Origin: Marsupella aquatica
Lineage: Eukaryota > Plantae > Marchantiophyta
Direction of reading: 5' to 3'
DNA length: 64,000 nt
Assembly (NCBI GenBank): GCA_973895155.1
Contig: OZ316896.1
Span: forward strand, 4,841,925-4,905,924
The notes beneath the pieces are model-generated. The model was not told the DNA's origin and did not search any database. It was given only the letters and a program-made list of their open reading frames with translations. Positions 6,499 to 59,450 of the stretch are shown piece by piece (within the stretch, counting starts at the first letter, position 1; every line of letters begins with the position of its first letter). The position numbers and the translations under genes are program-made.

Positions 6499-6774
6499 AA
6501 ACATCTCCAATATCTTGCGAAGTACAGCAGAGTCCAAGGATCTGAGTGGCTGCAAAAGCCATCGCTTAGTAACTCAAATATCATTTACACGGGGCTTTGT
6601 CAAGTATAGGGTGTCAGACGTTCTTGTCCAGTGGGTGGCAAAATTTGTCCACCAACACCTTTCTGCTGACAAAGGATGGCTGATAATCCTGTACTTTATA
6701 AGAAACTACATGAGGAGAACTGAAACTTGGTATCTAACTCAATCACTGACGACTAAAGTAGCAGCAAACACGCA

Positions 6775-31539: not shown

Positions 31540-32860
31540 GAGCTCTTATTGTGCTAGCAAATGTGGAAGGTTTATTTTTACTTTATTCACGTAACATAAT
31601 TGGCCCATATATTATCTCATTGCTAAAGTACAAGTTTAGATATATCAAACTGCCCCCATATATTATCTCATTGCTATACAAGTTTAGATATATCACACTT
31701 TCATGATAAGGACCTAATCAATGGGGGACAACCAAAGAGAAAAACAGCAGACTCCCAACTGGGAGACATGATCCCTTGGCAAAGTACCTAATCAATGGGG
31801 GACAACCAAAGGAGCAAGAAAGGCCAGGAAGCAAAGAAACAAGAGAAAAACACATGATCCCTCAGGCAAAGGACCTAATCAATGGGGGACAACCAAAGGA
31901 GCAAGAAAGGCCAGGAAGCAAAGAAACAAGAGAACAATAGCAGGCTCCCAACTAAGAGACATGATCCCTCAGGCAAAGGACCTAATCAAGGGGGACAACC
32001 AAAGAACCAAGAAAGGCCAGAAGCAAGGAAACAAGAGAGAAATAGCAGACCTAAAACCAGAAGCCTAAAGTCTATCAATAGGCAAATCAAGGGGAACAAC
32101 CAAGAAAGGCCAGAAGCAAGGAAACAAGAGAAAAATAGCAGACCTAAAACCAGAAGCTTCCTTGTGAACTGCAGAGCCTGATAGACAAACTGAAGACTGC
32201 AGAGCCTGATAGACAAACTGAAGACTGCAGAGCCCGATAAAACTTTCTTGTGAACTGCATAGGAGGGTCAAGCCAAAAAATACTACTAGAACTTCCTTGT
32301 GAAGTACTGAGGAGGGTCAAAGCAAAAGAATCCTACAAGAGTCTCTAAAATGCCTGATAAAATTCCTTGTAAACTGCACAAGAGGGTCAAGCAAAAGAAT
32401 CCTACTAGACAAGTCTGATAGAACTTCCTTGTGAACTACAGAGGGAGAGTAAGAGGAGGATCAAGCAAAAGAATCCTACTAGAGTCCCTAAGAGCTTTCC
32501 TTGTAAACTGCACAAGAGGGTCAAGCAAAAGAATCCTACTTGACAAGCTTGATAGAACTTCCTTGTGAAGGGGAGAGGAGGGTCAGAGGAGGATCAAGCA
32601 AAACAATCCTACTAGAATCCCTAAGACCCCTTACAAGAATGGTTTAGAAATTTGATATCTTAGCAAATGGAGAAGATTTTCTTTCACCTACTAAGAATAG
32701 TTTGGAGCTTTTATCATCTTAGCAAATAGAGGAGATTTCTTTCACCTTATTCACAGATGATAATAGGCCCACGTGTCAGTTAGGAGCTTTAGTCATTTTA
32801 GCAAATGTGGAAGATTTATTATTACTATTTTCACGCAAGATAATTGGCCCATATATCACA
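31540..32860 (+). repeat. Mosaic of degenerate tandem repeats flanked by ~70-bp direct repeats
   Basis: Units: acctaatcaatgggggacaaccaaag (4x), caagaaaggccag(g)aagcaa.gaaacaagaga (4x), ctgcagagcctgatagacaaactgaaga (2-3x), ttccttgt.aact..agagggtcaagcaaaagaatcctact (~6x). The flank ggagct..tagcaaatgtggaag..ttcacg...ataattggcccatat occurs at ~31540-31610 and ~32782-32855. Confidence 0.75.
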
Positions 32861-33085: not shown

Positions 33086-33169
33086 GACAAGATGACATCC
33101 CATTTCCATGTGATCTCTCTATGCCTCTTATCATTCAGGCACGTCGAGCGTCCAGCTACGCATCCATAT

Positions 33170-33497
33170 GCTTCAGCATTCATTTCCTGTCTTCGATTCC
33201 ATTTCTCACAATCTTCGACAATATACCTTGCGTTAATTGCCAGTCTTCGGTTCCGCTTCTCGCAATCTTCGACAATGTACCTCGGCATGAATTTCCTGTC
33301 TTCGATTCCGGTTCTCGCAACTTCGACAATGTACCTCAGCCTTATTTCCCTGTCTTCGATCCCGATTCTCGCATTCTTCGACAATATACCTATGTCAGCA
33401 TTTTCTGTATTCGTTTCTGATCCTCGCAATTTCGACAATATATACTAACCTCAGCATGAACTTCCTGTCTTCGTCCGTTTCTCGCAATGTTCGACAG
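33170..33497 (+). repeat. Degenerate tandem repeat, ~6 x ~55-60 bp
   Basis: The unit cctcagcat.aatttcctgtcttcgattcc..ttctcgcaatcttcgacaat(a/g)ta recurs. Confidence 0.85.
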
Positions 33498-36474: not shown

Positions 36475-39400
36475 AATGGGTAAGTGGGAACACTTTGAAG
36501 TCCGGCGGCGTAAGATCTCCAACAATGCGCATGAATGCTCTATTTGTGACCCTACTCAACATAAGGTACACCAGGCCCGGTGTGAATGCACTGTTTATTT
36601 CTAGCACGACCTTGCCCGCTACTGTGCAACCTTGGCTTTTGTACCTGTTATGGCATATCCGAGCATGAGTGGGAAACGGGGTGGGAAAGTGGATTTGCGA
36701 TGGGTTTGCTGTCCCGAGATGAACTTGTTCTCATGAACCGTGCGATTGATCTTTACGAGGCAATGGTTGGAAGACATTCTCACAAAAATTGACATTTTGC
36801 CTTCGGCTTCTATAGTGATTTTCTCCACGATTCCTCCATTGCCGTTCGCGGCTTGCTTGGAGAGGTCAATGTTGTGTGTGAGAATCACCTTGCATCCGAT
36901 TGCAACGTTTGTCAGTGTGTGGAAGGAGGGATCTTCTATCCAAGGTTGGGTGGATTTGTCTGAAGGGGCATTGGTGAGTATTGGGACGGGCACGATCTCT
37001 TGGCGGGGAAAATATCTCTGTAATGCCTGGTCGTTGTACTTGTCAACTGTTTCTCTATGTGTGCATATCACGGTCGTCGAGGCGTCGATGAAATCATAGG
37101 CTTCTTGTTTGGACACGTAACATCGTCCCAGGCATGCATCGATCGATTCTTGGATAGGGAGGCTTGTGCGGATGTTGTTAAGGAACTCCATGAACTCCCG
37201 GTCTGTGCTCTGTCTGAGCACAGTGCTGAGGTGAAATTTCCGCATGGTCTCAAAATATGGTGACGACGAGAGGTGGCACGACCTGCATATGTCGTTGGTG
37301 TGGTGGGTGCAAACTGGAGGCAATTGGCACATGTCTCCGACCAGGATGACCGTCTTATTTTGGAACGGGTCGGATGAGCGGTCCTCGTCTTGGAGTGTCT
37401 CGTGTAGTCTTGTGGAGACGCAACGCAACAATTTGGGTGTCAGCATGCTTGCCTCGTCTATGATGAACACATCATTGTTCCTCAAGATGTGGTATTGGGG
37501 ACTGGTGATGTGCAGAGGCCTGAGCTCTCCGTGTATTGGAATGTTGATTGAACAAGGAATGCATTGTCACCGCGTCGGCGTGAAGGTTTATGGCAGTTGC
37601 GCCCGTGGTGGCACACATCTTCACCTTCTTCCCTTTATATGTCCAGTATTTATTCATGTACAAGATGAAGAAAGTTTTGCCGGATCCCGGATTTCCATTG
37701 ATCATGAACAGATCGCTCTTGACATCCTCGAGGGCCTCAAACACTTTGATTTGGTCCGAAGTCAAGTTGATGGTTGGGAGAGTTTTGTCGTTGAGCACCG
37801 GGCCAATCGGTTCCTCTACGGCGATGGCGGGGACCGCTTGGAATGTGGCCGCGTCATTGAAAATTTGGTGGGGAAGCTTTTCATTCAGTTCTTGTAGCAG
37901 GTGGGATGTGTGGTGGGTGGAGTAGAGGTGCGATGCGCAATACTCAAGCACCAAATTGTGCATGTTGTCAACGTACGCTGGTTATCAACTTGCGGTGTAT
38001 GCACTCGTGCAAGTAGCTCCACGTCTCGCTTATGGGCCTGAGAAGAATTTTGCATTCTACACGGAATCTCACGACCTTCAGGAGGTAGTTGTAGAAGAAA
38101 CCATTCATCTTGTATACTGGATGATACTCCAAAAATTGCACAAGCCGATCTGTCTGATACACAAAATTGCCTTGCAAATCCCTGCCAACGTAGTCTTTGG
38201 TGGTGTTTTTCTTATTGGTTAGGACCTCGTGGTTGGTGAAGTAGTCATAGAAGGACATTGCAAACATGTCCTCGGGCCTCTATGCCTAGAGTCTGGTGGG
38301 ATGCAAACATATCCCCGAGGACTTACGGTAGATGGCGGACCTCAATTCCGGAGGGGACGAGTCCATGAACGCCACTGTCTCCGAGCGATGGATGATGTTG
38401 ATTTTGAGGCACGTCAAGGCCACCTCCGTGGTGCACACGCTTTGAGATAGGATGGCTCCGCTGACAAGCTTGAGTTGGACTTCAGACAAGTCCTCGAGTC
38501 CTAGAGTGCGCGCATCGTTTGCATTAAGCTAGAGTGATCCCAAGGGCTCGCATTTGATCGCATACTTGAGCAAATAGAATGACCAGGCCGCGTTTGTGAC
38601 GCGCTACAGGTTCATGTGCACGCCCCACAACAGCAACACGAGCGGGTGGTATGGCACAACGTTTTGGTGGTGGTCGCTTGGCCTGTGGTACCTCCATTTC
38701 CCCGTGGTGGGGTTGATGGCCGTATCTTTGTTGAGGTAAGTTTCTTGGGGGAAACCCAACTTGTAGTCGTTTGGGAGTGCCTTTGCAAGCACAAGCCCTC
38801 CTTGCAATAGTGAAGTTGTTTCGTCACCACGTTGCGATACATGGTCTTTTCTTCAACTCCATTTGGCTCTTCAAATTTGTCGGATGTCGAGTCAAATTTG
38901 CCAGGGATGAATGCGGCTATTTTGTTTGTGACTTGATCGACATTGCAATCCTTGACCCATAGCACCGTGTGGGCGTGGAGTGATTCGCGGCCCTGCAACT
39001 GATACCTGATGACGTAGTGGATCACATTTCCGATTATGGCACATTTTGACAAAATGTAATCCCTGAAAAAATGTTGAATTTGTTCGTGGAAGAGCATGGC
39101 GCATTCGACAGGACAATCTTGCCATGAGAAGGTTGGATTCATCCTCTTCACGATGTTTTCAAGGTCAGAGATCTCAGGCCAATGGGTGTCGTTGAGCTCG
39201 TATCAATAGTTTCACTAATTCTGGAATATTATTAACGATTTGGAAATTTCATAACAACTTTTTGGAAATTTAAATCAAGTAAATCGTAGATAAATATGAG
39301 ACTTATCAATATCATATTTGAAATTTTTTGATCAAGATATATGAAGCTTAACAAGCTACTCCTAATAAATCTATGTCTAACATACAATGTACTCTAGAAC

Positions 39401-40830
39401 TCAAGTTAGAGGGAAAAGAATAATTGGTGTTGGAAATTTCATGATCAAAAATTGGACAAAAGAATGTCCAGAGTTAGTGAAATCACTGATTCGTTGCAAG
39501 TGAGCGTGAGGAAGAAGTGGGGCAGTCCCCATTTTCTCACCATGCACTTGAGGTCGTCGAGGTGTCTTTCGTGCCACGCCGGGCTCCCAGGAACGGCCTG
39601 CATGATTGTCTTTTTTATTAGCATTTTGTATGTTTCCTTCTCGCTAAAGTGGGGGCACTTCTCCTTGATCTGCATGTATTCCTTGTCAATTACTATCGTC
39701 CTGCTCATGCTTGCTACTTGGCTGGCCTGTCGCAATTGGTACATGATAACCATGTACGGCTTGTACAAAGTGAATATGTTGAACAACTGTTGTGTTCTCC
39801 ATTTCATGTAGTCAATCAAGTTGAGTTGTCCTCGATGGAAACCCCTCAAGTGGACGAACAAGAACGGGAACCTTGCATTTTCCAATATCAATTGTGGATC
39901 GTTCGACAGTCCTTCCGCGTTGGTGTTGATGCTCTCTTCTGAGCATATTCTCTTGCTATCGTACACGGTGCCGGAACGAAAGACCTGGTGGTTGCGCTTG
40001 CGTAAAGTCGGGATCCTATATTGCACATCTTGGAGGATGTGCAGGTTGGGGTCGAATGGGTCAAAGTTCATGGATCTCATGGTGATTCCCTTTGCCCTCT
40101 TGTCTTTGATGATGTTCTCTACTCCGTCGGAACTTAGGATGCACAGTCCCAGTGATGGGTCTGGCAGCTCAACCAATGAACCGTATCTTTTGAAAAGTTG
40201 GTTGGTCGTCAAATTGAGTTCCATGACCTTGTATATCTGTCACATGATCTCCTCTCGATTATTGCACTCTAGCGTGTTGAGATTCCAGGATATGAGCGGG
40301 TTGTCAAGGAGGCTTTCCTTTTTGTAGAAGCCAGAGTGGAAGCCATTGTACTTTGTATGATGCCTAGTTGACAGTTGATTAGCGAGAGAAATTGCATGTA
40401 CAATGGCTTTGCAGCTAGGATGTTGATCGCATATTGCGGAGATATGAAGGTGTTTATCTGGATACGGGCGGGGTTTTGCACACAAGTCACGCACACGTTG
40501 ATTTTTCCATCTCGGTTCTCAATGTATTGGTTGACAAATGCGTTTCATATGTCGTACGGCGTCATGTTCACCTTTGGTACGGTGGTGAATGTCTTGTCGA
40601 GCCTCGGAGTGTTTCCGTATCAAACTAGTCCACACATCCCGCACACCTTCATGCCTTAGACTGTCTTTTGGCAGACGGCTCTCCACTATTGGAGATAAAA
40701 TGGGGCTGAGGCCCATCCTTGACATAACGGACTCAGTGACTTGGCACTGGTGTTTATTGCACGCCTTTGTGCGGCATGTCTCTTCTCGGACATTATACGT
40801 CGTGACATTTTTGGGGAGACCTATATGCAA
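36475..40830 (-). mobile_element. Helitron RepHel (HUH endonuclease + PIF1 helicase), decayed copy A
   Basis: Rep motifs PHFFLTLTCNE..WPEI, YQLQGRESLHAHTVLW (HUH), YLLKYAIK (Y2); helicase motifs GNPGSGKT, FIIDEASML, ILVGDMCQLPPV, VLRQ, FPLMLGYAIT, YLMLSRV. Several frameshifts; termini not resolved. Confidence 0.92.
39202..39490. mobile_element. MITE (289 bp) inserted in the Helitron Rep domain, 4-bp TSD TCGT
   Basis: Imperfect TIRs atcaatagtttcactaattctgga / tccagagttagtgaaatcactgat; tcgt at 39198-39201 and 39491-39494. Excision restores in-frame LTCNE-LNDTHWPEI. Confidence 0.88.
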
Positions 40831-43529
40831 AGGATTATGAACTTGTCAATTTTGTTACCTCACTAGGGTCCATCCAAAATTTGTGCAATGAAACCCCTTG
40901 TCATCAGGTGGTTGCACCTTTGTTGTGGGAGATGGAAGAGATCTACGGGGTTACAAAGGACCCACGATGATACTCTGGTGCAGTTGGTACAATTGATTTG
41001 GATGACTTCATCCAAGAGTTTGATACGTGGTGCAATATGCGGACATTGCGTAATGCCACGTTATTTACCCCTTTCATGGCATGGAAGAGATTATTTCAGC
41101 ATTTGGAGGGGCTACCCATGGATGATTACCATGAGTTTTGGAAGACTCATTTGGTTGAGATTGAGGCATGGAGGCAACATTGGTTGCCTAATTATGTGTC
41201 CATCACTTATGGCACTAGTGCGGCATAACCCTAAGCCAAAGTGGCACACCATCTACTAGTACCACTCTAGTAGCATCCACCGCTACTCCTACTAGTGTGA
41301 TTGTGACAGGGACGGGAGTTGCGCCAACATTGAACCCTGTGGTGGAATTCTTTGAGGTACTAAAGCAGAACTATCAGGGTGTGAGAATTGATAAGTTGAA
41401 GGGTCTCCAGGAGTTGGCAAGACTGGAGAGAGTCTACGTGAGGCATACACTCATATGCACAGATTGATCATTGTCACCAAGGGAGTGACAGAGGCTCAGG
41501 CAGTCCAATTTTGGTATGCAATTCTAGACAGAGAATTGCGACGTAAAGTGAGAGATGTCACTCTACTTAGGGATGCAGATCCCACATTGGCAGTTGTTTT
41601 TACACTTTTTGAGAGCATTGAGTTCATTATGGTGAATGAGAAAGTGGTGACTTCCAAATTTGCCAAGGAAGCACCAAAGGCTGCATCTACACCCACATCA
41701 CAACCTACTGCACGTAAGAGCCAGATGAAGAAGCCCACTGCACAGGAATCTACCAGTCAAAGGCCTATGCCCTCCTATGCTAGACAGCAGTCGGGATGTT
41801 AGACCTATGGTGGGGATCATGCGCAACAATATTGCCTTGATCATAGAGGGTCAAGAGGGGCCTCCGCACCTAATCAGTGGCAGTGTGATAATTGTTGAGC
41901 TCCTAGATACACCAAGGATAGGTGTTTCTCACTCCATCCTGAGTTACAAAGAGGAGGACAGCGCACACATGATTAGGGAAGATGAGGTAAAGATTGTAGT
42001 CATGGCCGAGGTATGCCACATGCAGGGAGATAAGGAGGTGATGTTGCTCCTACTGTGACCATAGGTCCTAAGGACGCTAAGATTGCTCAATTGGAGGAAC
42101 AACTAGTTGCTATGGCTAGTTCTCAGGTGAGACCTACTTCTGGTGATGGGGCTTCTACATCTCATGGACCTTCCACATCTTATGGGGCTGATGGAGACCT
42201 TGTCACCATGGGATTCATGTGTGGCACTGCGCATATTGATGCATCAACAACTTTGACACTTGGGATAGCCAAAACTTTGAGCCCCAAGGAGCAGTAGTGG
42301 AGCTAGATCCACAGAGGGGGGATGCACGTTGTCAGAAAAAGTTCCTCAGTCTTTTACATTGTCAGAGACAGTTCAGACTCCCTCTATGAACCCAATTTGG
42401 ACAAACCCTTGTCTGGGTAAGTTGGCAGAATCACAGGATGTTGCAGTAGGGATGATATGTACCTTGTTGGGGATGACTACCACCATAGTGCGCACCCCAC
42501 TATTTTAAGCGACAGATATGCTGACATTGGGGGTTGGTCCAGTTGATGTGTTCAGATTAGCAGCCACATTATGCGAGGATACTCCAGTTTTGGCTTCCCA
42601 TGCAGAGGCAGCATGCAGTTGTGGAGTAGGAGAGTTGACACCACCTACTGCTACTAGTGAGACATGGCATGCAGCATCAACAAAGTTGATGGATTTTCCA
42701 GCACACCGTGCATTTGAGAGGACTAGGTTTAAACCTAGCGTTGTGTCATTGGATAATCGGGGTGGTATCTTCCGATTAGTTGGGCCTATTGGAGCAGTAT
42801 ACCAGCCAAAGAGAGTGTTACTAGATACTGGTGCCCAGCCTTTGATGTTGGTAAGTCTGCAGTACAAGGATTGGGATTGCATCCAGATGATCTGGAGGAG
42901 TGTCCCTTTCCTATTCAGACTTCATTGGGGAGACCTACACCCACACATCACATCACCAGACGACCACTTGACTTGCGGATTCAAGAGGGTCATGCAAAGG
43001 ATAGCTCTCACATACAGACGAGCTATTTTGACTAAGGTAGAGTCCTATGATGTGTTGGTGGGATGTACAGTGCTGTACCCCATGGGATTTATTCTTGATT
43101 TTTGGGATGAATCAGTTTCATATCGGCCTGATTAGCAATCTGGAGATGCTAGATTGAGCAGATTGCGAGTGCAATTTAGTGGACCTGTGGGGGGCCCTAA
43201 ACCTGCACCACTGTCTGTGGCAGCATTTAGTGATGTGATCACTGATCCTGATGATTTGATTGAGGGCAATGCACATGCAGCAGATTTTCCAAGAGTGGAG
43301 CAGTACGTCACTTGAGGAGCAGGTCATGTATGGGTTACCTGTTGGTAGTGTTGTACCACCAGTGTGGGGCACTAGCCAGGCCTTGCCACAAGCAACAGCA
43401 CAATTGGTATATGATGCGTGGCGTCATGGTTTTACACCACAGCCAGGAGCAGAGCGATCTCCTATAGGTGGGTCGGTGACTCTTTCACCATTGGATACCA
43501 CTCCCATTGCATGGCAGTATCCACTAGAG

Positions 43530-44480
43530 GGTATTTGTTTGTTGGATTTATTTGATGGGATTAGCACTGGATTGGCTGCTATTCTTCAGGCATGAATTCC
43601 AGTGCGTCGTTACTTATATGTGGAGACAGATGAGATAGCATGGAGAGTCTCATTGCGCCATGTGGCTATGTTGGTCAATTGTTATCCATAGTTATTGTGA
43701 GTGGATGTTGTTTGTGGCTATCAACATGCACTGCTTGCTGATATTGTATTGTTGGGGGCGAATCATTTGGATCGCGTTGGTCCTATTGATTTGGTGATTG
43801 GTGATTGGCCATGTCAGGGCCAATCTAGAGTTGGCGTTGGACATGGACTTCATGACCCACGATCTGCATTGTTTTAGGAGATGTTACGGGTGTTGCGTCA
43901 TCTCCAGTTGCATCAAACACAGTCTCCAACCTACATTTAGGAGAATGTGCCACTCTTGGGTAATCATTGTTAGCAATTATTGTTAGTGTTCATCAGGTGG
44001 GGTCTTGTATTGGACCTGTTGTGTTATTGGATGCTGCACGCGTGGGTTCTCGTGCACATTGTCCACACTTGTGGTGGACTAATTTGTTACCAGGTGAGGT
44101 TTTGAAGCGAGCATTTGACAACATTCCTTGCTTGCTAGCCTTGGTAGTGGATGATATTTTAAATCCAGGGCGTCATTCACAGGGTGTGACCCAGCCTCAC
44201 TAATCTCCATTGGCCATAGTCAATGTGGTTGGGCGCCCACGTTGTGCATTACCCACCTTTGTGAGCCATTTTGCTTCATATGCTTTCAGCGCATGTGGTC
44301 ATAGACTTGTGTGGAATGCGTCGGCTCTCCGACAGTTAGTAGAGCCCACTACAGATGAGAGAGAGCGGGTCATGGGATTCTCCACAGGTACAACTGCTGT
44401 TGCATCTGTGTCAGAGAGTTCACACCGCCAAGTCCTTGGCCAAGCCATGGATTTGAATTGTTTGACTTGGATTGTCAGCT
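43530..44480 (+). pseudogene. C5 cytosine DNA methyltransferase domain within the retroelement pol region
   Basis: Reading through stops in the frame of ORF 43260: motif I CLLDLFDGISTG, II YLYVETDE, IV IDLVIGDWPCQGQS (PCQ at 43809-43817), V DPRSALF, VI YI*ENVP (43941-43949). After a frameshift: VIII LDAARVGSRAH(C)P(H)LWWTNL, IX EPTTDERERVMGF, X RQVLGQAMD. Confidence 0.92.
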
Positions 44481-46196
44481 TGGGAGTAGTAGAGCAGTAT
44501 TGGATGCGCTCTGCTGGTGTTACCAATCTTCCATTGGTGAGCTTGCAACATACTGAGATAGTAGTGGCCACAACTGGGGGCGAACAGACAGTCCATGGAC
44601 CTCTAGCAGGATTGGCCAAGGCTGGACAGATTGTTGAGCAAGAAGGGACTGCTCAAACTATTGTTAAATAGCAATCATCGGCTATCTCTTCTACCCTACA
44701 AAAAGATATTAGGGATTTGGTGGAGAGTTGGGAGCCACAGATTGGTCCTAAGTTAACAAGGGAGGAAAGACGTCGCATGCATGTGCCTTCCTTTGTTGGG
44801 TTCCAACATGCATTCGATCTATGGACTCTACTTCATTGGATGAAGTAGATGATGAGTCTACCGATATGGATGCTGATGAGGTTGTGGTTGGACAACAGGA
44901 TATTCACAACAATGAGAGAGTGTTGAAATACCTGCTCACTGGTTCTATTGGTGGCAGTGTTGATGCCAAGGAGCGTGACATGGTTCTCCAAAGAGCCAAG
45001 AGGTTTCAATGGGAAGGAAATCATCTTTTGAGAGAACTACATGATGGTAAGGTATTGGTGGTACCAAAACCATCACAACAAGTACATTTGGTGCGACATG
45101 CGCACGAGGAGTTGGGTGACTTTGGTCTGAAGTGCACTTATAGCTTGTTGCAGACATAGTATTGGTGGCGTGGTATGCACACTCACGTCCAACAATTGAT
45201 AGCTAAGTGTGTGGTATGTACGTGATCGAGTGAGAGCATCCTTCAATGCTCCCACTTCCCAATTGCATCCATTGTCGATCATGGGTTTGGGGTACAGATG
45301 GAGTTTGGACTTTGCTGGTCCATTACCTCTTACCCAAAGACATAATCGGTATGTTTTGGTTATGATGGAGCACTTCTCCAAATGGATTGAGCTAGTAGCG
45401 TTGCCAGATAAAGCTAGTGGAGGAGTTGCTACCATATTTTTGGACCGTGTACTCAGTCATTTTGGGACACCAACTGAGGTGTTGATTGATCAGGGAGCTG
45501 AGTCCCATGGAGAGTTTGAGATTTTGTGCGAGCAAGCTCTGATTGATCATCGTACTACTTCTCATGACCATTCTGAGGCAGATGGATTGGCTGAGAGAGT
45601 AGTGCAAACTATGAAGAGAGGATTGCGCAAGTATGGCTTGTAGGTTGGTCATCTGGGAGATTGGGATCTCCAGTTACCTTGGTTAGCTATGGGCTATCGT
45701 TTCAGTCGGCAAGCATCACTTGCATCCTTCTCACCTTATTTCTTGCTCTATGGTAGAGAGCCAAATTTGCCAGCAGCTATTCGTCGTGATACTGCATCGA
45801 TTGTGAACTTGGATAATCCCAATGTTTGGGTCAAGGTTTGTTCAAAGAGGGCAAGGATTTTTGAGAGAGTCATGCCCATGGCCTTTGCAAACCTTGCCAT
45901 TGCCCAACATCGTGATACTTTGCGGTATGCCACTATTTGTGGAGGAGGTTATTGTGCGAGGATTCAACGATTTCATCCTAGTGATTATGTCGGGGATTAT
46001 GTTTATTTGCAGAAGACATCACCAACTACACTTGATGTGACCGCGGGTCAAAAGTGCTGCCTTCTGGTGTCTGGTGTTGGAATGGCGTGATGGTATGGTT
46101 TGGAAGGATCATGTGCGCAGCTGTGCACCATGTCATCTTCCAAACATTGATGGTACAGTGGATCCAAGCTTAGCACATGTTTGTGCTGGTTTGAAG

Positions 46197-46340
46197 TGTA
46201 TGTTGTGTGAATCTGCTCAAGGAGCAGCTACTCATATGTTTATTTGTGATAAGTATTCTAGAGGATGGCACATGTTGTGTTTGACACCACCATTGCAGGT
46301 GATTCCTAGTGGATCATGGTTGTGTCCTCAGTGTCGGTGA
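46197..46340 (+). other. PHD finger at the C-terminus of the retroelement integrase
   Basis: CMLC-x11-CDK(Y)-x3-WHMLC-LTPPLQVIPSGSW-LCPQC follows the C4HC3 PHD pattern, with one Cys>Tyr substitution (tgt>tat). Confidence 0.88.
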
Positions 46341-46514
46341 ATCCAACTAGTTATCAGTTGTGTTCTCTTGGAAGATATGGATTGCAGGTAGGTGATCGAT
46401 GGGGCTTACTTGCACCCGACCTCCTGATCTTCACACCTAAAAAGATGTATATCAACCTTGTAGATCTCATGGCTAGCTAGAGTTAGGGGACCTTACTCCT
46501 AGCTAGGGGGCGAT

Positions 46515-47121
46515 TGTGGATTTTGAACATGTGTGGACATGAGTTCCACTTGTATTCCCTTCTCTTGTGTTTGTGATGTGGCAGTGTGACTATGTCTGGA
46601 TGTATGTGACAAGTGATGTATGTTATGTAGCAATGTGTATGCGCACGACAATTGTCACACCATTCTAGGTAGTGGTAGAGTGTATTGTCCTATCTAGATT
46701 TGTATGTTTGGTATGTGTGCTATATGAGCCGATAAGGTTCCGTTAGGTTCGTGTGAGAGGGTAGTTCTCTCTTGTGAGACATTGAAAGGTTATCTTTCAA
46801 TGTTGAGCCTTGGAGAGGGGAGCTTGTGTGGTGGCTATGGTGGCTGAGACTCTCTCTATGTAGCATGGATTCCTTGAGTGCAAGGTGCGTTGGCTCGACA
46901 TACATGACTGTGTGATCGGATCAGACGGGATTGAGTGCGTATTGTTGGCATTGATCGTTGTTTGGATTCTATTGGGATTATTGTGGGTTTTGGACATGTG
47001 TGGACATGAGTTCCACTTGTATTCCATTCTCTTGTGTTTGTGATGTGGCAGTGTGACTATATATGTCTAGATGTATGTGACAAGCGATGTATGTTGTGTA
47101 GCAATGTGTATGCGCACGACA
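46515..47121 (+). repeat. Putative 3' LTR (TG...CA) built from two ~136-140 bp direct repeats (46515-46650, 46982-47121)
   Basis: Both copies read tgtgg.ttttg.acatgtgtggacatgagttccacttgtattcc...tgtgtatgcgcacgaca. A PPT-like tract precedes the first copy and Helitron sequence follows the second directly. Confidence 0.7.
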
Positions 47122-47937
47122 AATACTCAAAAACCAACTTGTGTATGTTGTCAACATTGGTTATCAACTTGCAGAGTATGCACTCATGCAAGTAACTCCA
47201 CATGTCGCTTATGGGCCTAAGGAGAATTTTGCCTTGTACACGGAATCTCACAACCTTCAAGAGGTAGTTGTAGAAGAAGTTGTTCATCTTGTATACTGGG
47301 TGATACTCCAAGACTCTCATGATCGAGTCGATCCGTCCAATACACAAAGTTGCCTTGCAGGTCCTAGCCAACATAGTCTTTGCTAGTGTTTTTCTTATTG
47401 GTTAGGACCTTGTGGTTTGTAAAGCAGTCATTAAAGGACATTGCAAACATTGCCTTGGGTGGTTGTGCATAGAATCTGGTGGGGATGCAAACATATCCCC
47501 AAGGACTTACGATAGATGGCGGACCTCAATTCCGGAAGCAAAGAGTCCATGAATGCAACTATCTCTGAGTGATGGATGATGTTGATTTTGAGGCATGTTA
47601 AGGCCGTCTTTGTGGCGCACGTGCTGCAAGACAGCACGGCTCAGTCTGCTAACCAGCTTGAGCTGGACTTCAAACAAGCCTTCGAGTCCTAGAGTGCGTG
47701 CATTGTTTGCATTTAGTTGGAGTGATCCCAGGGGCTTGCATTTGATGGCACACTTGAGCAAATAGAATAACCAGGTTGCGTTTGTCACGCGCTGCAAGTT
47801 CATGTGCGCGCCCCACAACAACAACACGAGCAGATGGTATGGCATGGCCTTTTGGTGGTGGTTGCTTGGTCTGTGGTACCTCCATTTCCCCGTGGTGGGA
47901 TCAATGGCGCCATCTTTGTTGAGGTAAGTGTCTTGGG
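47122..47937 (-). mobile_element. Helitron RepHel fragment, copy B
   Basis: Colinear same-orientation homology to 37939-38749 (EYHPVYKMN.FFYNYLLKVVRFRV; LLLWG.HMNLQRVTNA). Confidence 0.9.
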
Positions 47938-49077
47938 TGTTAGCATCATTCTTCCGAGTGGCTTTTGCTTCGACCCACTTAGTGGCATAATCAGTAGCAA
48001 GTATTATATACTTACTAAGGCTCTTACGTGCAGCTGGTGAGATAGGGCCAATAAAGTCTATGCCCCATTTTTCAAAGATAGCTAATTAAAGGTAAAATAG
48101 GAGTGAGAGGCCACTTAGAAGATGATGTTGGCTTCCCTACTCGGTGGCAAGGATCACATGACTGAATAAATTGGTAAGTATCTTTGTGCATTGTGGGCCA
48201 CCAGTAGCTTGCTACAAGAATTTTTCTAAAAGTGGAATTCATTGCCTAATGGCCTCCAGTTTCACTTGAGTGTAAGGATTCAATGACATGTGAATTTCCC
48301 TTGCTTCTTAATTTCTGATCAGGGTCTTGTTTAAACAAGGTACCTTTAATAATGGTGTAAGGTCCCACCTTATGCGAAGGACAGCCCGCTCTTCAGCATT
48401 AAGACCTTGTGGGAATACCCCATGAAGCAGCATTTGCACTATCTCAAAATACTTGGAAGATTCGCCCTCGATGCACCATAAATGCTCATCTGGAAACTCG
48501 TCTGATAGGTTGTGTTCATTTTCTTCCCCTAGCAGTCTTAACAAGAAGTTAGCATTTTCATGGTGTTTCCCAGGGCGGACATGCACTTCATAATCAAATT
48601 CCTGAAGTAGGAGTACCCATCTTGCTACTCTCCCCAAAAGATCAACTTGGTTAACCAAATATTTTAAAGAGTTGTGGTCAGTATGGAATATAATCTGGTA
48701 ACCCAGGAGATAATGGCAGAATTTATTACAGGCAAACACAATGGCGAAGGCCTCTTGTCAGTGACAGGATAATTCTTTTTTGCTGCACTCATTTGCCTAC
48801 TAGCATAGTAAATGGGGTGGTACATCACGATTATCCTTTTCCTTTTGACTTAAATTAGCGCCTAGCAAAAGGCAGAGGAATCAATAAAGATATGTAACTT
48901 TTTACTCTAGTGAGGAGGTGAAAGAATGAGATCAATTATAAGTCTATCTTTCAATGTTTGAAATGCATGTTATCTCTCCTCACTCCATTCATAATTAAGG
49001 TTCATCTTGCTTCAGCAATTTGGTTAAAGGCAAAGCAACCGAGAAAGCAACATCAGCATGCTTGTAAATAAAGCGGC

Positions 49078-50990
49078 TGTGATGGGGCCAATGCCCCCAA
49101 AGAATGATTTTAAGGGGTATTAGTGACGTGCAAATGTAAATAGGTAGATTTGTGTCATGTTTTTTCTGCTTTTGTTCTTTTACAACTTGCCAATGGGTTG
49201 GTTGGTTTTTATGTCCTCTTAATTTTAGTTGTTGGCCAAGCTTCAGGAAAAGAGGAGGTTGGCCACTGGCCGGTGCAAGACAAGGCATGTACCCTAATGC
49301 CCTCCCATGGTGGAGTTGGGGGATTGCCTCTCTTTTTATTTTATAAGCGGCCTTGGTATTAAAATAATGATGCCCCGGGTCAAAATGTGTGAGTGGCCAA
49401 ACACCACTTTGACCCTGGCCAGGAAGAGATAGGGAGCAGGAGCTTTGGAGTGGGCCAGACACAAAAGTATTAAAAAATACTAAATTTTAAAGAGCCTTGG
49501 CCGTTTGGGGACCCCGGCCAGGAGTATCCTTGCACTTGGGGGAGGACCTAAAAGAGCCCTGGCCACCGGAGGGCAAGCCCAAGGAGACCCCGGCGAGGAG
49601 GACAATGAGGGTTCCTGTGGCCAATCCGTAGATGAGCATCTTACTACAAGCAAGCAGTCAGATGAAGGTTAGTACGTGAGCCGTACGGACCTTGGCCACA
49701 GAAAAGTCAACTTTCAATCTTCTCAAAATCAAGAACTTCTATGCTTATTGGAAGGAGCTCGCCAAACTGAATCCAACAAGGTAAGACACGCCCCAAACAG
49801 AGTTAAAATGAGGAAGATACGGACCAGAGGGTTTTGGCAAAAAGTTGGGGTCCGACGCTGTACAGACATCCGTACATCATTCAGGTGAGTGACCCCGGCC
49901 AAATCTTGGCATGCAGCCTTGGCCAGGGTACCTCCTATGATTTCTTGATGGGAGGCCAGGGCCGTACAGACAACCGGGAAGTGATGGTGGTCGAGGTAGA
50001 ACTTGAGACTCGGTAAGCCATATCTCGAGCATCTAATGTCCGTTTTGGGATCTGTTTTCGGGGTTATGATCAAGATGGCAATGGCTATCCAAAAACATTC
50101 TCAGGACCAGATTTCGAGCAACTTCTGCTTTTGACAATTCTCATGGTCAGGGTAGTGGGAGGTGGAGGCAACCACGTAGTAGGAAGGCAGACCATGGCCT
50201 ATATCGGCCTTAGTCTAGTTTTTTCTTAGTTGATGTGGTGGCCGACAAAGGCACCGTTGGCCGTCTATGGGTAGCAATAGGGTTAGGAGTGCATATGTGT
50301 GTCGAATGCGTAGGAAGCTTTTAGGTTAGTAGCGCCGCTAGTGGATTGTGGCCAGCCAAGGCAGTGGCCGCCGCCACACCCCCCTAGGGCTTGTGCGCTC
50401 ATGCATTGTTTTCATGGTATTTAAATAGCAGCCCCTGGTAGGAGCAAGGGGGAACTCAATCTAGTGTTTTTGTTTTGAGGATTAGCCTTCAACAAGAGTA
50501 GGGAATTCATCTAGAGTAGTGAGATGGAGAGGCGCTCATTGTCCCGTGAGACAGGAGTTGGACAGACAACAGGAGACCGGGTTAATTGCCCATGCAATGT
50601 GTTACATTGGCCACCAACAGATATAGATTCGGTTGGATTCTCATAAATTATTGTGTGGTGTTCTCTCTCTTTGTTGCACGATTGTGTTCTCCCCCTAGCA
50701 TGAATGTTTAGAGAAATTTACATGGTTTGGTCGACCCTGTGAGTGGGAGAGTGGTGACAGCACTTTGCCAAAGGCTAGGAGGAGTAGGAACAAGGTAGTC
50801 CACAGGACTTGATCAAAAGCGGAGTACACGTATAGTCAGTACACGTACATTTTCGAGAGCAAAAACAAATCTACTCATCCTTAGTAGGAAATTAATCCAT
50901 ATAGCGTCCCCGCCGTATGATACAAATAATTCTTAGTGGAAACCAAACGGTATTTGTTGTGTTAATCATTTGATATATAAGCAGGTGACA
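49078..50990. mobile_element. Solo-LTR-like insertion (~1.9 kb) inside the RT of the Athila-like element
   Basis: Termini tgtgat...gtgaca; degenerate 5-bp TSD gcggc / acggg. Removal restores GYY-RRFIYKHAD in the RT. Non-coding, with a TATA-like tatttaaata at ~50418. Confidence 0.78.
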
Positions 50991-53900
50991 ACGGGGATAG
51001 TACCCAACATGCCCTAGGAAGGCACAAAGTTTCTTCAAATCTGTAGGGGGTCACACTTCCACAATCATCTGAACCTTCTCCTTATCCACCTCAATACCAC
51101 GTTGGGAAATTACATGATCGAGAAAAATGCCCTCCTTCGTGCCAATAAAGCACTTCTTTGGGTGTAAACACAACTGAGCCTCTCTACACTTCTAGAAAGT
51201 CTTCTCAAGGTGCATCAAATGGTTAGCAGCTAATCCAAATACGGAGAAATCATCTATGAAAATCTCCATAAAATGCCTCGAGTACTCTTGAAAAATGATC
51301 ATCATGATCCGTTGGAAAGTTCCCAGAGCATTACATAGGCCAAACGGCATCATGGTGAATGCATAAGTTCCCCAGTTGGTAGTGAAGGTAGTTTTTTCTT
51401 GGTCCTCCTTACGGAAACCTGATTATAACCAGAGTAGCCATCCAGAAAACTATATAATTCATGCAAGGCGACAAGATTGAGCACCAGATCAATAAATGGT
51501 AAGGTTTCTCAACATTGGATAGATAAACCTAGCAGCTGTCAATTTGTCTAATTCCTCCTTCACAAGTACATAATACTTTGGGTTCAAGCGGTATTGCCGT
51601 TGTCTGACAGGAACCGTGCCTTCCATTAAATCAATTTGTTGTTGTCCCAAATGAGGGTGGATGCCCTTCAGATCCGAGTGGCTCCAGGCAAATACATCCT
51701 TATACTGAGTTAACAATTTAACATCTAATTCCTTCAACTCTCCTTGGATATGCTTACCTATGTTGAGAAATTTGTCGGGTTCAATCCCAATATTTTGACA
51801 TGCCTTGGGATCTAATATAGCATCAGTGAGATTGAGGGTGTGAGCTCCCACTTGCCCACGTCTGGCTCCGTATTGTCCTGGGAATCTAGCCACTGCCCTT
51901 TTACAATGGGTGTTGATTGGACTGCATGCAACCAAGGGCACTCCTTGTAGACTGGACAACGTCCTTCCCAAACTTAATTGTCAAGAGGCATCCACAGGTT
52001 CAATTTCCGTCTCCTTCCTAGCTTCGGACAGATAAATCTCTAAGTAGTGTACCTCTTCCAGCTCAAACTCCATAGGCTCTAGAATCAAATCAGAATTGGA
52101 AAAATCTGATCTATAACCATCATCAGTTTGAGTCTCACCTTTATGTGCATCAATAGCCCAACTCACTACTACTTTGGGCTTACCAAAGGTCATCTCTTGA
52201 TTTCTCCAATTCACCTGTACTTGAGCTTTATACAACCAAGGTCGTCCTAGCAAGACTGGAAAACTCAACGGTAATTCTGGACTTATCACCACATACTCCA
52301 ATGTAAACAGAACACCAGAAATTAGGGTCTCAACCTTACTTAACTTTCCTGCTGGAACAACTCGAGATTGGTCAGCCATGCGTAGGATCTTTGGTGTGGG
52401 CTCAAACTTAGTAAACCCAAGATTGAATGTTGTTTGCTGAGTCATGAGATTAATGTTGGACCCACCATCCACTGGTACTTTCCTCACAACGCATCCTTGA
52501 ATCTGTACATCAAGTTTTGGCGGTCCTTTATCTTCCTATTCCAAGCGTAATACATCCACTTCAAGTAATTTCCGTTGCCTTCTCTTCCCGGCCAACAACC
52601 CTCTTAATTGCCTTCTATACACAGGATTGTCCTGGAGGAACTCACCAATGATGATCTGAGCCGGATGATTCTTCACATCCTCCACAATATCATACCCATG
52701 TGGTTTAGAAACTCACTGATCTGGCTCCTTCTCGACAGGCTTTTGTACAAAGTTTGGTTTGTGAGTCTTTTCCTTTGTCTTTTTCTCCTCCCTTGCTTAG
52801 AGCGAGTGATGGCATATATGTTAGTCAAAACTTTATCCCGGTCCTGCACTCTGGCGTTTGGCAAGCCCACTACTTCTGGTTTCACCAATTGTCCTACCAA
52901 CACATCAGGTACTACACTTGCAAGAGGATGGTTAAATATAGAATCTTCCTTCACCTCCACCCTATTTACCTCTATATGTTGCAGGAGCCCACAATGCTCC
53001 ATCTCTTCTGTGTACACCATGCGCACCTTGGCTTTTGGTCTACTAACCTCCTTGACAGGCTCTTGAGCAAAAGGTACCATCATCTTTGGCTTAGGTGGAT
53101 TTGGACATGCAATAGGTAAGTGGCCTTCCTTCCCACAATTCCCACAGATAGGTGTATATCCCTCCTCCCGCTTAGGATAAGGACATTGAGGTGAATAGTG
53201 ATCTGGTTGACCGCAATTCCAACAGGATCCTTTTTGTCATGGAGCTCCTCTAGGGGGGTACTCTCTTGGGGATCCCATAAGTGGCCTTGGTACTGGTCTG
53301 CTAAAGGCAGGCTTAGGTACGTGGTGCCCAATTAGTCATAGGCACAGGGGCAAGTGGAAAGTACTGATCTCCTAGTGTTGCCTGTACCGCATAAGTAGGC
53401 TCATACTCATACTCTTCCACCTCGTCTTATCCTTCCAAATAATTCACTGTCTGCATCCGCCAGGTTGGACATTCATGTGCGTAGTGTCCTTGTTGGTTAC
53501 ATCGAGTAGTACACCATACATTCATTCTCATGGAGGGTGGTAATTTCCGTACAGGCTTAACTCTAGAAATATTAACATTTAGCTTGGTCAACTGTCCAGT
53601 GATCTCTTTCATCGTGCGATCCATTTTCTTCTGATTGGGGTTCTTAGGTATTACCTTAGGTGGTGCCTTCTTCTTCTTTGGGGTAGTCTTCTCAGAATCT
53701 GAACTTGTACTTGAGCTCTCGCTGGTACTAGTGTCCATGCTCTTGTCCTCTTCACTCATGGTGGTATCAGTATCGTCCTCCTCGGAATCATATTTAGACG
53801 TAGACTTTTTCTTCTTTCTCTCTTTATTTTTCTTTAAATCTTCCTTCACTCGTTCCTTTTCTGAAATTTTTGAATCAACATACTTATGGGCTGCTCCCTG

Positions 53901-55265
53901 AACCTCCTCCAAAGTGGTACCTCCTTCATGCCTTATGTACCGGGAAATTCGAGATGGCAATCCGTTGATGAACCAGTCCTTCATAATGGACTTAGAGGTG
54001 GCTGGATTATATTGGTCCACCAAATCCAACAACTTATCCACATATTTCCTTACAGAATCATGCTTCTTCATGTGCAAATGAGAAATCCAAGCAAAGGCTC
54101 AAAGCAGCGGATCCTTCCTCCTTGTACTTAGCCAAAAGGCAGCTTTCAACTTTCCCCAATCATTCTTATCTGGAAAGCGGTCATACCATTTTTGAGCTCT
54201 CTTTTTCATCAATCCGTCGAATAGATTGGCCTTTTTTGCATCTTGACTTTGTCCATTTGAAGCTGCAGCAACTTCAAATTCCTTTAGATAAACTTCCGCA
54301 TCCTCCCTATATGACCCAAAGAATCTATTGTATCTCACATTATTTTGAGCCATTATAGTGGCACTCAAGTTAGGAATTGGTAAGGCTGATCGAGTGGCAA
54401 ATGGGTTTATCCAAGTTTGAGGACGTAATACACTGGAGCTACTAGATTTTGCACCACTTTTTGAACTCTTTTTACTTGTAGACGAGCCCTCCGATGAATT
54501 GAATCTCATTAAGTCTTGAAGTTCTAGAATTGGAGTTTGTTCCTTGGAAGCTGTGGTGGTAAAGGGTCTACTAGCTGTAGGCTTTTCCAAAGTTCCCCAA
54601 GATAATCCTTCTTGAATTGAGGTCACCTTCCTTGTCACACTTCCCGTAGGAGGAAATTCTTGCGATTGGAATTTGGAAAGTAAGTCTCAAGGCTCCACTG
54701 CCTTGCTTGAGTCTTCTGATCTATGAGAGGTTTTCTTCCACTTCTTTTCGGGCTTCTTTTCTATTAGGCAAACTTTCTCCAACATACCTCATTCTCCACA
54801 ATGCTAGAACCTAGAAAGATAGGAGGCTCGCTCTGTCAGCAAATTCAGAGGTCATCAAATTATTTGGGTCCCTCTATCCATAACCACATCTAATAATGCA
54901 ATACCCTCAATTACAACATATAATTCAAAATCCCCCTCCATCATGAGTCTCCCAAATTCCTACAATCTTATTATGGTGCAAAAATCTCAGAATTTAAGAG
55001 TTGTCCTTCAAATTCTTAGAGTTCCCTCAAACCCTCTTTGTCGCTCCTCCATGAGCAAGATCCTTTCTCGGGAAACCATCTTTCTGGGCAACTTGATTCA
55101 ACATCGCCTGTAGGGCTTTAGGAGCATTGTCTATGATGAGCTGTTGTACTTCCAACACCAATTCACTCCAAAAATCTGATGTAGACATACTTCAAAGATG
55201 ATTCCTTTTACTTCTCAATTTTTAGCATTCACTGCCTAAACATCAATCTTAAGTCATCAATTTGT

Positions 55266-57155: not shown

Positions 57156-57232
57156 TCTTTTGCTTCAAAAAGTTAGAAAAAGATTGCAAATATGCTCCAA
57201 TTAATGAATTTTGACGAAAATGCCTATCCACA

Positions 57233-59450
57233 TAGGAACCATAGAGGGGGTTCTAAGCACCTCAAACAACAAGAATGATTGGGGAAGCCTAGCTTGCCTC
57301 CCAGCCTCACCTCTCTATATATGGATCCAACTCCACAATAACACCACGGGGCTCTGAAGCTTGAGCTGCACCTCTTGTCACTGCAGTTGATGCCTCCACT
57401 TGTGCTGCACTCTCCATATAAGAGAGATCATCCCCTCCATAAGATGTGGAAGCCCCTGTTCCCGAACCTGCCCGGTGGTGACTACCAACCATAGTAGCAA
57501 GTCTCTACTCCAACTACTCAATCTTAGCAGCCATAGCTGCCTCTGTAGTAGGGGGAGGGGCAGCCACCGTGGGCTCTCCAACTACTGGTGCACCTCTACC
57601 ACCTTGACCACCTCGACCTCGTGGAGCTGGTCCACCACAACCTCTACCTGATCTCAACTATGGGTAAAGGTCAAAACAACACTCCCGAGGATGACCTGCT
57701 CACCCGCAATGATCACACTGAGTTTGGGCCAACTGAGATCCATCCTAAAAAGTCTGTCCCCCATTCTCCTTATGGAAAACCCTCCTATGATGATCACCAC
57801 CACATGTCCAACATGACAGCCCTTGCTGCGGGGCAGCGAATGAAGGCAATGGTCTTTGCGCAACTGTCCCTCTAGGACCTGACTGAAGTTGTGCCTGACC
57901 TCCACAACTCCCACTATTACTACCGCCACCACTATTATGAGGTTGTGAGGTGGACTGATGAACCCCAGACATAGTGGCTGTATCCTTGCTGAATGCAGGT
58001 GTCACCACTCTCTCCTCCACCATGTTAAGCTCAATCTTATCAGACAAAGCAAACACATGGGCCAATGTGGGGGGTTCATCACTCATGAGAGTAGCATCAC
58101 GTACCCTTCGCTACAACTCTCTATCCAAAATCACATACCAAAGTTGAATTGCCTGAGCCTCAATCACACCCTTGGTAACTGAAATCACCCTTCGCATATG
58201 AGTGTATGCCTCACAAAGACTCTCACCAGTAGTCTTCCTCTCAATGCAAACTCCTGAAGACTCCTCAACTTCTCCATCTTCACCCCCTTGTAGTTCTTCT
58301 TCAACCTCTTGAAGAACTCCGTAACTGGATTGAACAAAGGTGGGGCACTAATATCTATACTGGTGGTGCCACTCTGACTGATACTCCCACTAATTGATGT
58401 CAAAATATTCAGCTAACACGGTAGAAGCACTACTACTAGTACCACCATGAGTGATAGACACATGGGTTGGAGACCAATGTGGTCTGCATGCCTCAATCTC
58501 AATAACGTGGTCCTTTCAAAACTCATTGTAATCATCCATGGCCCGAGGTCCCTCTAAGTGCTGAAACAACCCCTTCCATGCCAAGAAGGGTGTGAACAAC
58601 GTAGCATTAAGCAACATCTGCATATCGCATCACGTGTCAAATTCCTGAATGAAATCCTCCAACTCAATGGTACCACTACACCCGAGTAACGTCGTGTGCC
58701 CTTCATGGCCCCGTACATCCCATCCATGTCCCAAATCAATGGGGCCGCTACACTAGATAGTGACACAAAAGACTTGGTGTCTGGAACACCCTCGTCCTCC
58801 TCCTCATCAACCAACGGTAACGGAAAAGGTAGTTGATACCTCAATCCACTCTGTGTAAAACCACTAGTGTCCGCACCTAGGTCCCAATAGGACCACCAAA
58901 CTGCTCCGTGATGACAAACCGCAACAGCACCACCACCAAATCACCACCACTGAGTAACCAAGTAATGTCAATGTTGTTGTACTACTCTAGCCCTACCAGC
59001 TATGGGTGTAGGCAACCTAACCTGTCATCACCACAAGAAGCCTCCCACAGTCTACTGGTCATCACTCCAGTCTCATCGTGAGAGAAACATAGGTAGTTTG
59101 ACTAGTCATCACTCCAGTCTCACTACCGGCAGCACACAAGAGTAAAACTACTCCAAAAATCAGTGTCAGCCGGCAAACAATGGCCGCACAAGCAAGAAGC
59201 AACAATGGAGGGGATCCAATCACAAGAAGTCCAACAACAACCCTCAACCCGCAAATGAAACTACAAAATGGAAATCAAGGCAACACAATCCACCAAACGT
59301 GGTGCCCCCTGAATCCACAAAACAAACCACACAATCCTAATGCAATGGTGGCTACTCTGCTGGTAGTCTATGATGTGCTCATTGCACTCATAGCACCTGA
59401 TAATGTCACTTGCATGGAAACGTTATACATCACCATCTTCTAGGAATCCG
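57233..59450 (-). mobile_element. Second, diverged copy (5' leader + gag) of the DNMT-retroelement lineage, interrupted by the Athila-like LTR
   Basis: The reverse strand parallels 40880-42390: WDMDGMYGAMK..RRYSG, FNPVTEFFKRLKKNYKGVKMEKLRSLQEF, PTLAHVFALSDKIELNMVEERVVT, CWTCGGDH knuckle, GASTSYG..VELDP. Homology stops at the TG start of the Athila-like LTR. The upstream boundary is approximate. Confidence 0.8.

Follow-up and report, generated by a model that had tools for sequence, protein, structure and literature searches.

KnitGypsy-Dnmt3 of Klebsormidium is a Gypsy retrotransposon with a DNMT3-like domain in the ORF of its reverse transcriptase (RT), and the available text of its description proposes a model in which the element's own DNMT methylates its cDNA (de Mendoza et al. 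2018, PMC5890265). The single published test of the Klebsormidium enzyme, made in yeast, showed no de novo methylation and was called inconclusive. The term PHD has 0 occurrences in the text and searched supplements of that paper; the figures fall outside this scope, and Fig. 4c could show such a domain. PHD fingers have been called widespread in retrotransposons (PMC6673714; preprint 10.1101/2021.11.30.470311). Gypsy-7a_cRei of Chlamydomonas is a Gypsy element with a PHD in its Gag-Pol, proposed in the text available to limit harmful insertions; its intergenic insertion is 2.6 times chance, and targeting versus selection was left open (PMC9940879). PHD-bearing Gypsy elements and elements with a reader plus a writer are already in print, and the idea considered here is less new than a sequence-only reading of the locus had held. 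The combination of PHD and DNMT3 in land-plant Gypsy elements was not found described in the literature covered, outside which lay most subscription journals, Repbase and theses.

In the ADD-DNMT3 module the reader adjoins the catalytic domain in one chain. The sequence-only reading of the stretch analyzed here, 64,000 nucleotides of contig OZ316896.1 from the liverwort Marsupella aquatica (the window), had placed a C4HC3 PHD finger at the end of pol, had likened it to fingers that bind unmodified H3 tails, and had proposed from its pairing with a DNMT that the element follows the ADD-DNMT3 logic, targeting a chromatin state and methylating DNA there.

The element in the window

The copy in the window is a dead relic of a Ty3/gypsy element of the Gypsy-DNMT3 kind and performs none of the functions proposed below. 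Its PHD finger and integrase are out of frame, one zinc ligand is a Tyr, the DNMT contains stops, and a deletion has removed RT and RNase H (Table 1). In the segments matching proteins P0073 and P0123, 18 stops were counted over 9 aligned pieces, including the conserved stop described below. The domain order in this branch of the family is Gag-PR-DNMT-stop-RT-RH-IN-SH3-PHD; the Gypsy order PR-RT-RH-IN with a DDE integrase was found in relatives. The closest named proteins were those of Marchantia, Calypogeia and Sphagnum (65-72% identity). The family is abundant, with 496 to 7,306 contigs per run in the runs of organisms A, B and C; contig depth served only for ends and variants and is not a copy number.

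The leader and the 5' terminal repeat (A1) are absent from the window copy, and at the bin that begins at 40876 family contigs become deeper by a factor of about 20-40. The zinc knuckles of the gag remnant are taken as such from their motif, and the protease-like region, for which no Pfam match was obtained, is presumed to be one from its LLDTG motif, besides its position. The DNMT was matched by PF00145 with 28.5 bits (E 1.3e-6, stops read as X); 5 stops lie within its first 146 codons. The RT/RNase H region measures 1,847 bp in full-length locus L020 versus 330 bp in the window. The integrase was matched by PF00665 (E 9.2e-11) and showed 72-79% identity to P0024 and P0123, and the top PDB match of the family profile was Ty3 Gag-Pol (E 1.9e-32). 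Marchantia P0002 was modelled with AlphaFold (37 rows in the alignment, mean pLDDT 78). In the model, residues 93-155 would make up an SH3/Tudor-type barrel of their own, as is usual for the tail of an integrase; the Tudor/KOW/SH3-type barrels which they matched include integrase chains of RSV and foamy virus (Z 6.2-6.3, middling). The matches listed by Foldseek for a 695-aa model were all integrases.

The frame 46041-46340 (+) encodes a product which ends in GLKCMLCESAQGAATHMFICDKYSRGWHMLCLTPPLQVIPSGSWLCPQCR and a stop codon. A Pfam scan matched PF00628 to residues 53-98 with 34.9 bits (cut-off 24), E 1.6e-8 and 47/47 profile positions, far beyond chance; the PHD is real and ends pol after the integrase core, as the sequence-only reading had maintained. 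The span given there (46074..46340) holds the finger in its latter part, at 46197-46334, whereas 46074-46196 belongs to the SH3-like end of the integrase and a linker. The same reading had marked a Tyr at the fourth zinc ligand, and it was found there, so that not all eight C4HC3 ligands are present. Contigs of other copies from four runs have a Cys codon at this place at about 99-100% of depth, and as far as they show, the Tyr is confined to the window copy. The integrase core is in frame +2 and the PHD in frame +3, with a short gap relative to relatives at about 46052-46067 between the two frames. Among the contigs listed none directly bridges the IN-PHD break or the RT-RH deletion, and the evidence for the IN-PHD frame therefore rests on relatives.

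Table 1. Features of the decayed element, in positions of the window
Feature	Position	Strand	Basis
Gag remnant with several frameshifts and stops; two zinc knuckles, both decayed, at about 41797-41925	40914..42288	+	tblastn, Marchantia P0073 aa 1-454
Aspartic-protease-like region, LLDTG at about 42818-42832	42740..43130	+	aligns to P0069, P0073, P0094
DNMT3-like C5 cytosine methyltransferase, broken; one frameshift, near 43964; catalytic PCQ kept	43527..44480	+	PF00145
In-frame TAG then CAA TCA, between the Gag-PR-DNMT and RT frames	44669..44677	+	sequence, relatives
First residues of RT frame, then deletion of about 1.5 kb (RT and RNase H lost)	44729..44776	+	P0123 aligns from aa 508 at 44776
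Integrase: H2C2 zinc-binding part, rve core, C-terminal helices; frameshift near 45220, two stops	44920..45965	+	PF00665
SH3-like integrase C-terminal beta-barrel; frame shifted by short deletion at about 46052-46067	45968..46135	+	model of Marchantia P0002
C4HC3 PHD finger (fourth ligand Tyr) and pol stop codon	46197..46340	+	Pfam, PDB sequence matches, fold, contigs
Purine-rich tract before first terminal repeat, PPT-like (putative role)	46500..46513	+	sequence
Terminal repeat B1, ends ..GACA	46515..46650	+	93% identical to B2 over 143 bp; 72% match to L020 B
Putative A2 (internal copy of lost 5' repeat), starts TGTCA	46653..46981	+	position, start as in L020, L021, L078
Terminal repeat B2; element 3' end = CA at 47121	46982..47121	+	contig loose ends

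The full-length loci L020/L021, L078 and L045/L046 have split direct repeats of the plan A1-ORFs-B1-A2-B2, of which the window keeps B1-[A2]-B2, without A1. Since blastn of the A repeat of L020 gave no match at 46653..46981, the A2 label is positional. In three runs, 27, 38 and 15 contigs had loose ends with unrelated flanks past 47121 (agreement 0.36-0.43). Full-length loci start with TG (TC in L030) and end with CA, and target duplications of 4 bp were identified in 5 of 6 loci with both ends seen, the left end of L078 being damaged. The five duplications (TACA, CATA, ATTA, TGTG and TACA) have no common motif. Based on these features, the family combines a DIRS-like repeat plan with ordinary DDE integration. 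The B1-A2 joint of the window reads CA, two bases, TG and appears to resemble a circle junction. Forms of the type A-body-B (L006, L027, L030, L047) may be assembly collapse, since L070, from the same cluster as L030, has the order B-A-B. The split-repeat plan does not accommodate one contig joint, which runs from B1 back to 40971.

Several other features lie in the window. A second, truncated family member, gag only and of 68% DNA identity, was identified at 57231-58745 (-), and an A-repeat-like stretch at 63709-63873 (-), with a zf-RVT frame (59782-60426) between the two. A decayed Helitron Rep/PIF1 helicase (36619-40239, -) adjoins the element, and 37939-38749 recurs, as an 84% copy, in the right flank of the element (47122-47937). 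At 47915-54686 (-) lies a decayed element of Gypsy type, unrelated to the first, with zinc knuckle, RT, RNase H and integrase; no match to DNMT or PHD was found in it. CpG depletion was considered as a sign of self-methylation and rejected, the element (o/e 0.36) being no more deeply depleted than this neighboring Gypsy (o/e 0.41). Nested inverted repeats (1273-1913 versus 2519-3143) lie within 1273-4336, and the frame of 396 codons that comes directly after them has an NTF2 domain (E 5e-15). Degenerate tandem arrays occur at 25083-25716, 31778-32626 and 33166-33391, with periods of about 18, 50-134 and 54 bases.

Finger, methyltransferase and stop codon across the family

The occurrence of the PHD in other copies was determined in searches seeded outside the finger. 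The integrase core without the PHD, used as query against 1.84 billion representatives, gave 17,537 matches, of which the best 150 were analyzed; 57 of these end less than 250 aa past the integrase core and were set aside. The PHD was present in 89 of the 93 remaining relatives, mostly 180-200 aa past the core. Among the same best 150, DNMT and PHD occur together in 25 of 27 proteins with RT and a long tail, and 42 of the 43 DNMT-bearing proteins of sufficient length have a PHD. A search of metagenome contigs with RT-start patterns confirmed 93 stretches, of which 80 were kept and 62 were distinct at 97% identity clustering; these 62 loci are not independent, most of them being decayed copies from a single close family. 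The PHD was found in 31/34 distinct loci long enough downstream and the DNMT in 34/35 long enough upstream. Twenty-two loci are long on both sides, and 19 of them have DNMT and PHD, 2 the DNMT only and 1 the PHD only. The C-terminal domain (CTD) of the integrase and the PHD share one frame in 28 of 32 distinct loci. A further protein search gave 36 matches among 50 candidates, with core and PHD in one frame in 6; a value of 30/31 came from a search seeded with the PHD-containing region, which is biased, and was left out of the family test.

The finger is thus borne out as the C-terminal end of the integrase in the family, and its co-occurrence with the DNMT, which the sequence-only reading had proposed to check across copies, is a family rule. 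Loss of the PHD from other copies, or a PHD out of frame in intact ones, would have spoken against that reading; in most relatives the PHD is present and in frame, as the counts above show. Between divergent subfamilies pN/pS was 0.43 for the PHD, 0.42 for the CTD, 0.29 for the core and 0.52 for the DNMT, with synonymous sites near saturation and uncorrected, and among close copies the value for the PHD was 0.94, near neutral.

A tree of 61 RT-RNase H segments (family members only, 7 near-duplicates dropped, midpoint root, no outgroup) splits elements with the DNMT before RT from those with the DNMT after RNase H (support 1.0). The PHD occurs in both clades, whereas the position of the DNMT differs between them; the PHD therefore stays with the integrase, and it is the DNMT that moves. 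Four of 31 long frames have a PHD and no DNMT in frame, where a DNMT in a separate upstream frame is possible; frames without DNMT, complete RT-RH-IN-PHD frames among them, arise in at least two places of the tree.

Additional modules were observed in these relatives. In 49 of the 150 best integrase relatives the PHD is followed by a small beta-barrel and then, at the end of the protein, by a domain like the class I SAM-dependent amino-methyltransferases; P0042, P0046, P0048, P0049, P0052, P0060 and P0298 are examples, with SPPF/SPWF motifs. Its fold matches were METTL5 (Z 11.1, rmsd 3.3 A, 145 aa) and M.TaqI (Z 10.6, 3.0 A, 140 aa), and its Atlas matches include N6_Mtase clusters. Many of these members also have the DNMT3-like domain, an EpiLTR-like set in which a PHD replaces the chromodomain. 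A putative Tudor-like barrel past the PHD in algal-like members was labelled from motif and strand pattern, and a G-patch domain lies between DNMT and integrase in P0034 and P0049 of the second clade.

The best PDB match of P0069, a relative 80% identical to the window DNMT, was DNMT3A (E 3.6e-11), with DNMT3A/B/C at the top. Judged by sequence, the DNMT domain of the element is DNMT3-like and unrearranged. Among 90 near-full domains EN was kept in 86 and RxR in 87, and simple patterns for motif IV gave GxPC in 34 and GWEC in 31.

The DNMT frame of the window ends in TAG CAA TCA, and the same frame runs on into the RT start. P0069, the closest DNMT relative, ends at the same stop codon, 78 aa past LGQAMD. 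A stop 13-16 codons before the RT start was identified in 45 of 51 distinct loci (TAG 36, TAA 9), with CAA right after it in 43 of the 45; in 3 of the 6 loci without an in-register stop, this stop-CAA is present but displaced from the register by one or two bases. CARYYA is a known readthrough signal of plant viruses (PMC4132726). The full CARYYA is present in the window and in 2 of the 45 loci, and 40 of the 45 have CAA CCC. Programmed readthrough of the stop is likely from this context; since CAA CCC follows in most loci and an ATG lies two codons past the stop in most of them, reinitiation or a separate RNA is possible. No description of a stop that parts DNMT from RT in the Gypsy-DNMT3 family was found in the literature covered. 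The Marchantia gene models P0077, P0086 and P0092 jump from the DNMT end to RT and seem to be spliced across the stop. DNMT and RT occupy one ORF in P0037, P0094 (2,811 aa) and P0096 (2,391 aa), and in the latter two DNMT and PHD share a single open frame.

Predicted ligand of the finger and role of the pairing

The 60 PDB sequence matches of the finger were led by CHD4, KMT2C/D, ATXR5, PHF21A, WSTF, KDM5, DPF, AIRE and UHRF1, with BAZ-type fingers as well. ING, BPTF and TAF3 were not among these 60, nor were ADD entries among the listed matches; the finger matches canonical C4HC3 PHDs. The best fold match of the P0002 model was the ATXR5 PHD with H3 (Z 9.7, rmsd 1.5 A, 52 aa), and the ORC1b PHD with unmodified H3 (Z 8.6, 1.6 A, 51 aa) and DPF2 (also Z 8.6) were matched too. 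Residues were counted in 135 distinct family fingers with the full ligand pattern. We take the cage Trp to lie two residues before the His; Gly was found there in 120/135 and Trp in 0/135. An Asp follows Cys3 in 122/135, a Trp precedes the last Cys pair in 124/135 and the loop Pro is present in 127/135. In the parts available of two papers, a Trp cage is tied to reading of methyl-K4 and an Asp after Cys3 to binding of H3R2 (PMC3214078, PMC4291147). Based on sequence and model, the finger is predicted to be of the type that reads unmodified H3, without a K4me3 cage.

The resemblance to readers of unmodified H3 drawn by the sequence-only reading thus stands for sequence and for fold (ATXR5, ORC1b), and it fails for the acidic K4-contact residues of one group. 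An acid within four residues before Cys1 was found in 0 of 29 land-plant-like fingers and in 73 of the 106 others, and the mean net charge is +1.6 and -3.3, respectively. The N-terminal Asp for the free K4 amine, a feature of the AIRE/BHC80 subtype, is absent from all 29. Without this acid and with a positive net charge, the land-plant-like fingers seem poorly suited to a basic H3 tail. They do keep the Asp after Cys3 (26/29) and the P..W loop (29/29), the features through which UHRF1 binds H3, the K4 contacts being of little help there according to the text available (PMC3214078).

For working copies of the element, a model in which the PHD tethers the integration complex to nucleosomes via H3 lacking K4me3, while the DNMT acts separately on new cDNA, is in our view slightly on the probable side. 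Low-rate readthrough of the stop would place the DNMT at Gag level, packaged in excess, and would make IN-PHD a rare product; the protease would cut the domains apart. The PHD would bind A1-R2 of H3 through the Asp after Cys3 and the P-x-G-x-W loop, would hold the integration complex at H3 N-termini without K4 trimethylation, and would bias insertion away from H3K4me3 promoters. The DNMT would methylate the cDNA of the element in or near the particle. The tether is supported by the 2.6-fold intergenic bias of Gypsy-7a_cRei, a bias which may come from selection, in an element that may or may not belong to the family.

The loss of acidic residues and the net positive charge of the 29 land-plant-like fingers could instead mean that these no longer read histones and are kept for binding DNA, a host protein or the integrase complex, all the more as the model alone gives a fold and not a ligand; with the retained Asp and loop, and the example of UHRF1, this is rather unlikely. 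A finger which binds H3 and merely raises integration efficiency or nuclear retention, the bias arising by selection after insertion, would agree with the question left open for Gypsy-7a_cRei (PMC9940879) and with the lack of a common motif in the five target duplications. We regard it as quite improbable, the PHD occupying the position of the chromodomain, where targeting is reported (Gao 2008, cited in the available text of PMC6673714 and 10.1101/2021.11.30.470311).

A coupled reader-writer, in which the PHD would recruit the DNMT to a chromatin state for methylation at that place, in the manner of ADD and DNMT3A, would account for the strong co-occurrence in 25/27 integrase-seeded proteins and 19/22 RT-seeded loci, but shared descent alone accounts for it as well. 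P0094 and P0096, with both domains in one open frame, and the clade in which the DNMT follows RT and directly precedes the integrase, so that an uncut DNMT-IN-PHD is possible, speak for such coupling. In the branch of the window, however, the PHD is parted from the DNMT by the stop and by three enzymes, RT, RNase H and integrase, of about 1,000 aa in all, the long PHD frames without a DNMT in frame described above count against it, and the finger matches canonical C4HC3 PHDs with no ADD among the listed matches. Coupling of this kind is distinctly unlikely. The ADD-DNMT3 logic of the sequence-only reading is weak, given the stop and the intervening enzymes, the clade-dependent position of the DNMT and the PHD frames without it: the PHD is probably not an ADD-like partner of the DNMT, and the two are likely a family-wide pairing and not one coupled protein. 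ADD-like coupling stays possible mainly for the second clade, where DNMT, IN and PHD are neighbors.

Beyond the tether with a separately acting DNMT, a wider proposal, which we hold to be doubtful, is that a Gypsy clade spanning the green lineage reaches the outcome of ADD-DNMT3 by division of labor. A Gag-level DNMT3 would pre-methylate cDNA in the particle, and the integrase, a rare product of readthrough whose PHD is of the H3K4me0 type, would insert it into non-promoter chromatin. In a second clade the DNMT would have moved beside the integrase, and an amino-methyltransferase and a Tudor-like barrel would have been gained. If so, each copy would arrive pre-marked in a matching chromatin state, and the second clade would have up to four epigenetic modules in one pol gene. 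The conserved stop predicts that the methyltransferase is a high-copy component of the particle, as expected for self-methylation of cDNA. The family bears on site choice by retrotransposons and on why some of them carry DNA methyltransferases, and it offers a PHD counterpart to the chromoviruses in a model liverwort. Many Marchantia gene models with a PHD-type or DNA-methylase annotation are pieces of the element, which can raise the counts when PHD or DNMT3 genes of plants are surveyed.

Comparison with described systems

Two filings of the family were rejected. It was not filed with the chromoviruses, a PHD holding the place of the chromodomain at the C-terminus of the integrase; among 23 frames of the window and 26 other proteins scanned with Pfam, none matched the Chromo family. 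Phygy of REXdb has an insertion preference for NCGN in the text available (PMC6317226), and NCGN was found in 0 of the 5 target duplications, a small sample from old copies.

Split direct repeats, TG..CA ends and 4-bp target duplications link the family to KnitGypsy-Dnmt3. Compared by description only, the two share the Gypsy domain set, a DNMT3-like domain and the DIRS-like plan A1-ORFs-B1-A2-B2. KnitGypsy-Dnmt3 is described from Klebsormidium only, whereas the named relatives here are liverworts and a moss (no named Klebsormidium sequence was among the protein matches listed), and here a stop parts DNMT from RT. We file the element of the window as a Gypsy-DNMT3 variant, since its DNMT and RT are not in one ORF. 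Gypsy-7a_cRei, likewise set beside it by description, has the PHD in Gag-Pol and an LTR with subparts; no DNMT is named in its legend.

In fold, Asp after Cys3, P-x-G-x-W loop and lack of an aromatic cage, the family finger is like the PHDs of ATXR5, ORC1b, BAZ2, KDM5-PHD1 and UHRF1. Unlike these, the land-plant fingers have lost most of the acidic patch and are predicted readers only. In ADD-DNMT3 reader and catalytic domain adjoin, unlike in the branch of the window with its stop and about 1,000 aa between the two. As described in the available text, chromoviruses such as MAGGY have a chromatin reader past the C-terminal barrel of the integrase, as here (PMC6673714, 10.1101/2021.11.30.470311). 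They differ in having a chromodomain in place of a PHD, H3K9me in place of the predicted unmodified H3 N-terminus, and plain LTRs in place of split repeats. EpiLTRs/DAM-LTRs (preprint 10.64898/2026.05.21.726589) unite, as here, a reader and one or more DNA methyltransferases in one LTR element; theirs are a chromodomain and a DNMT4-sister enzyme, with no PHD mentioned in the available text, and here they are a PHD and a DNMT3-like enzyme.
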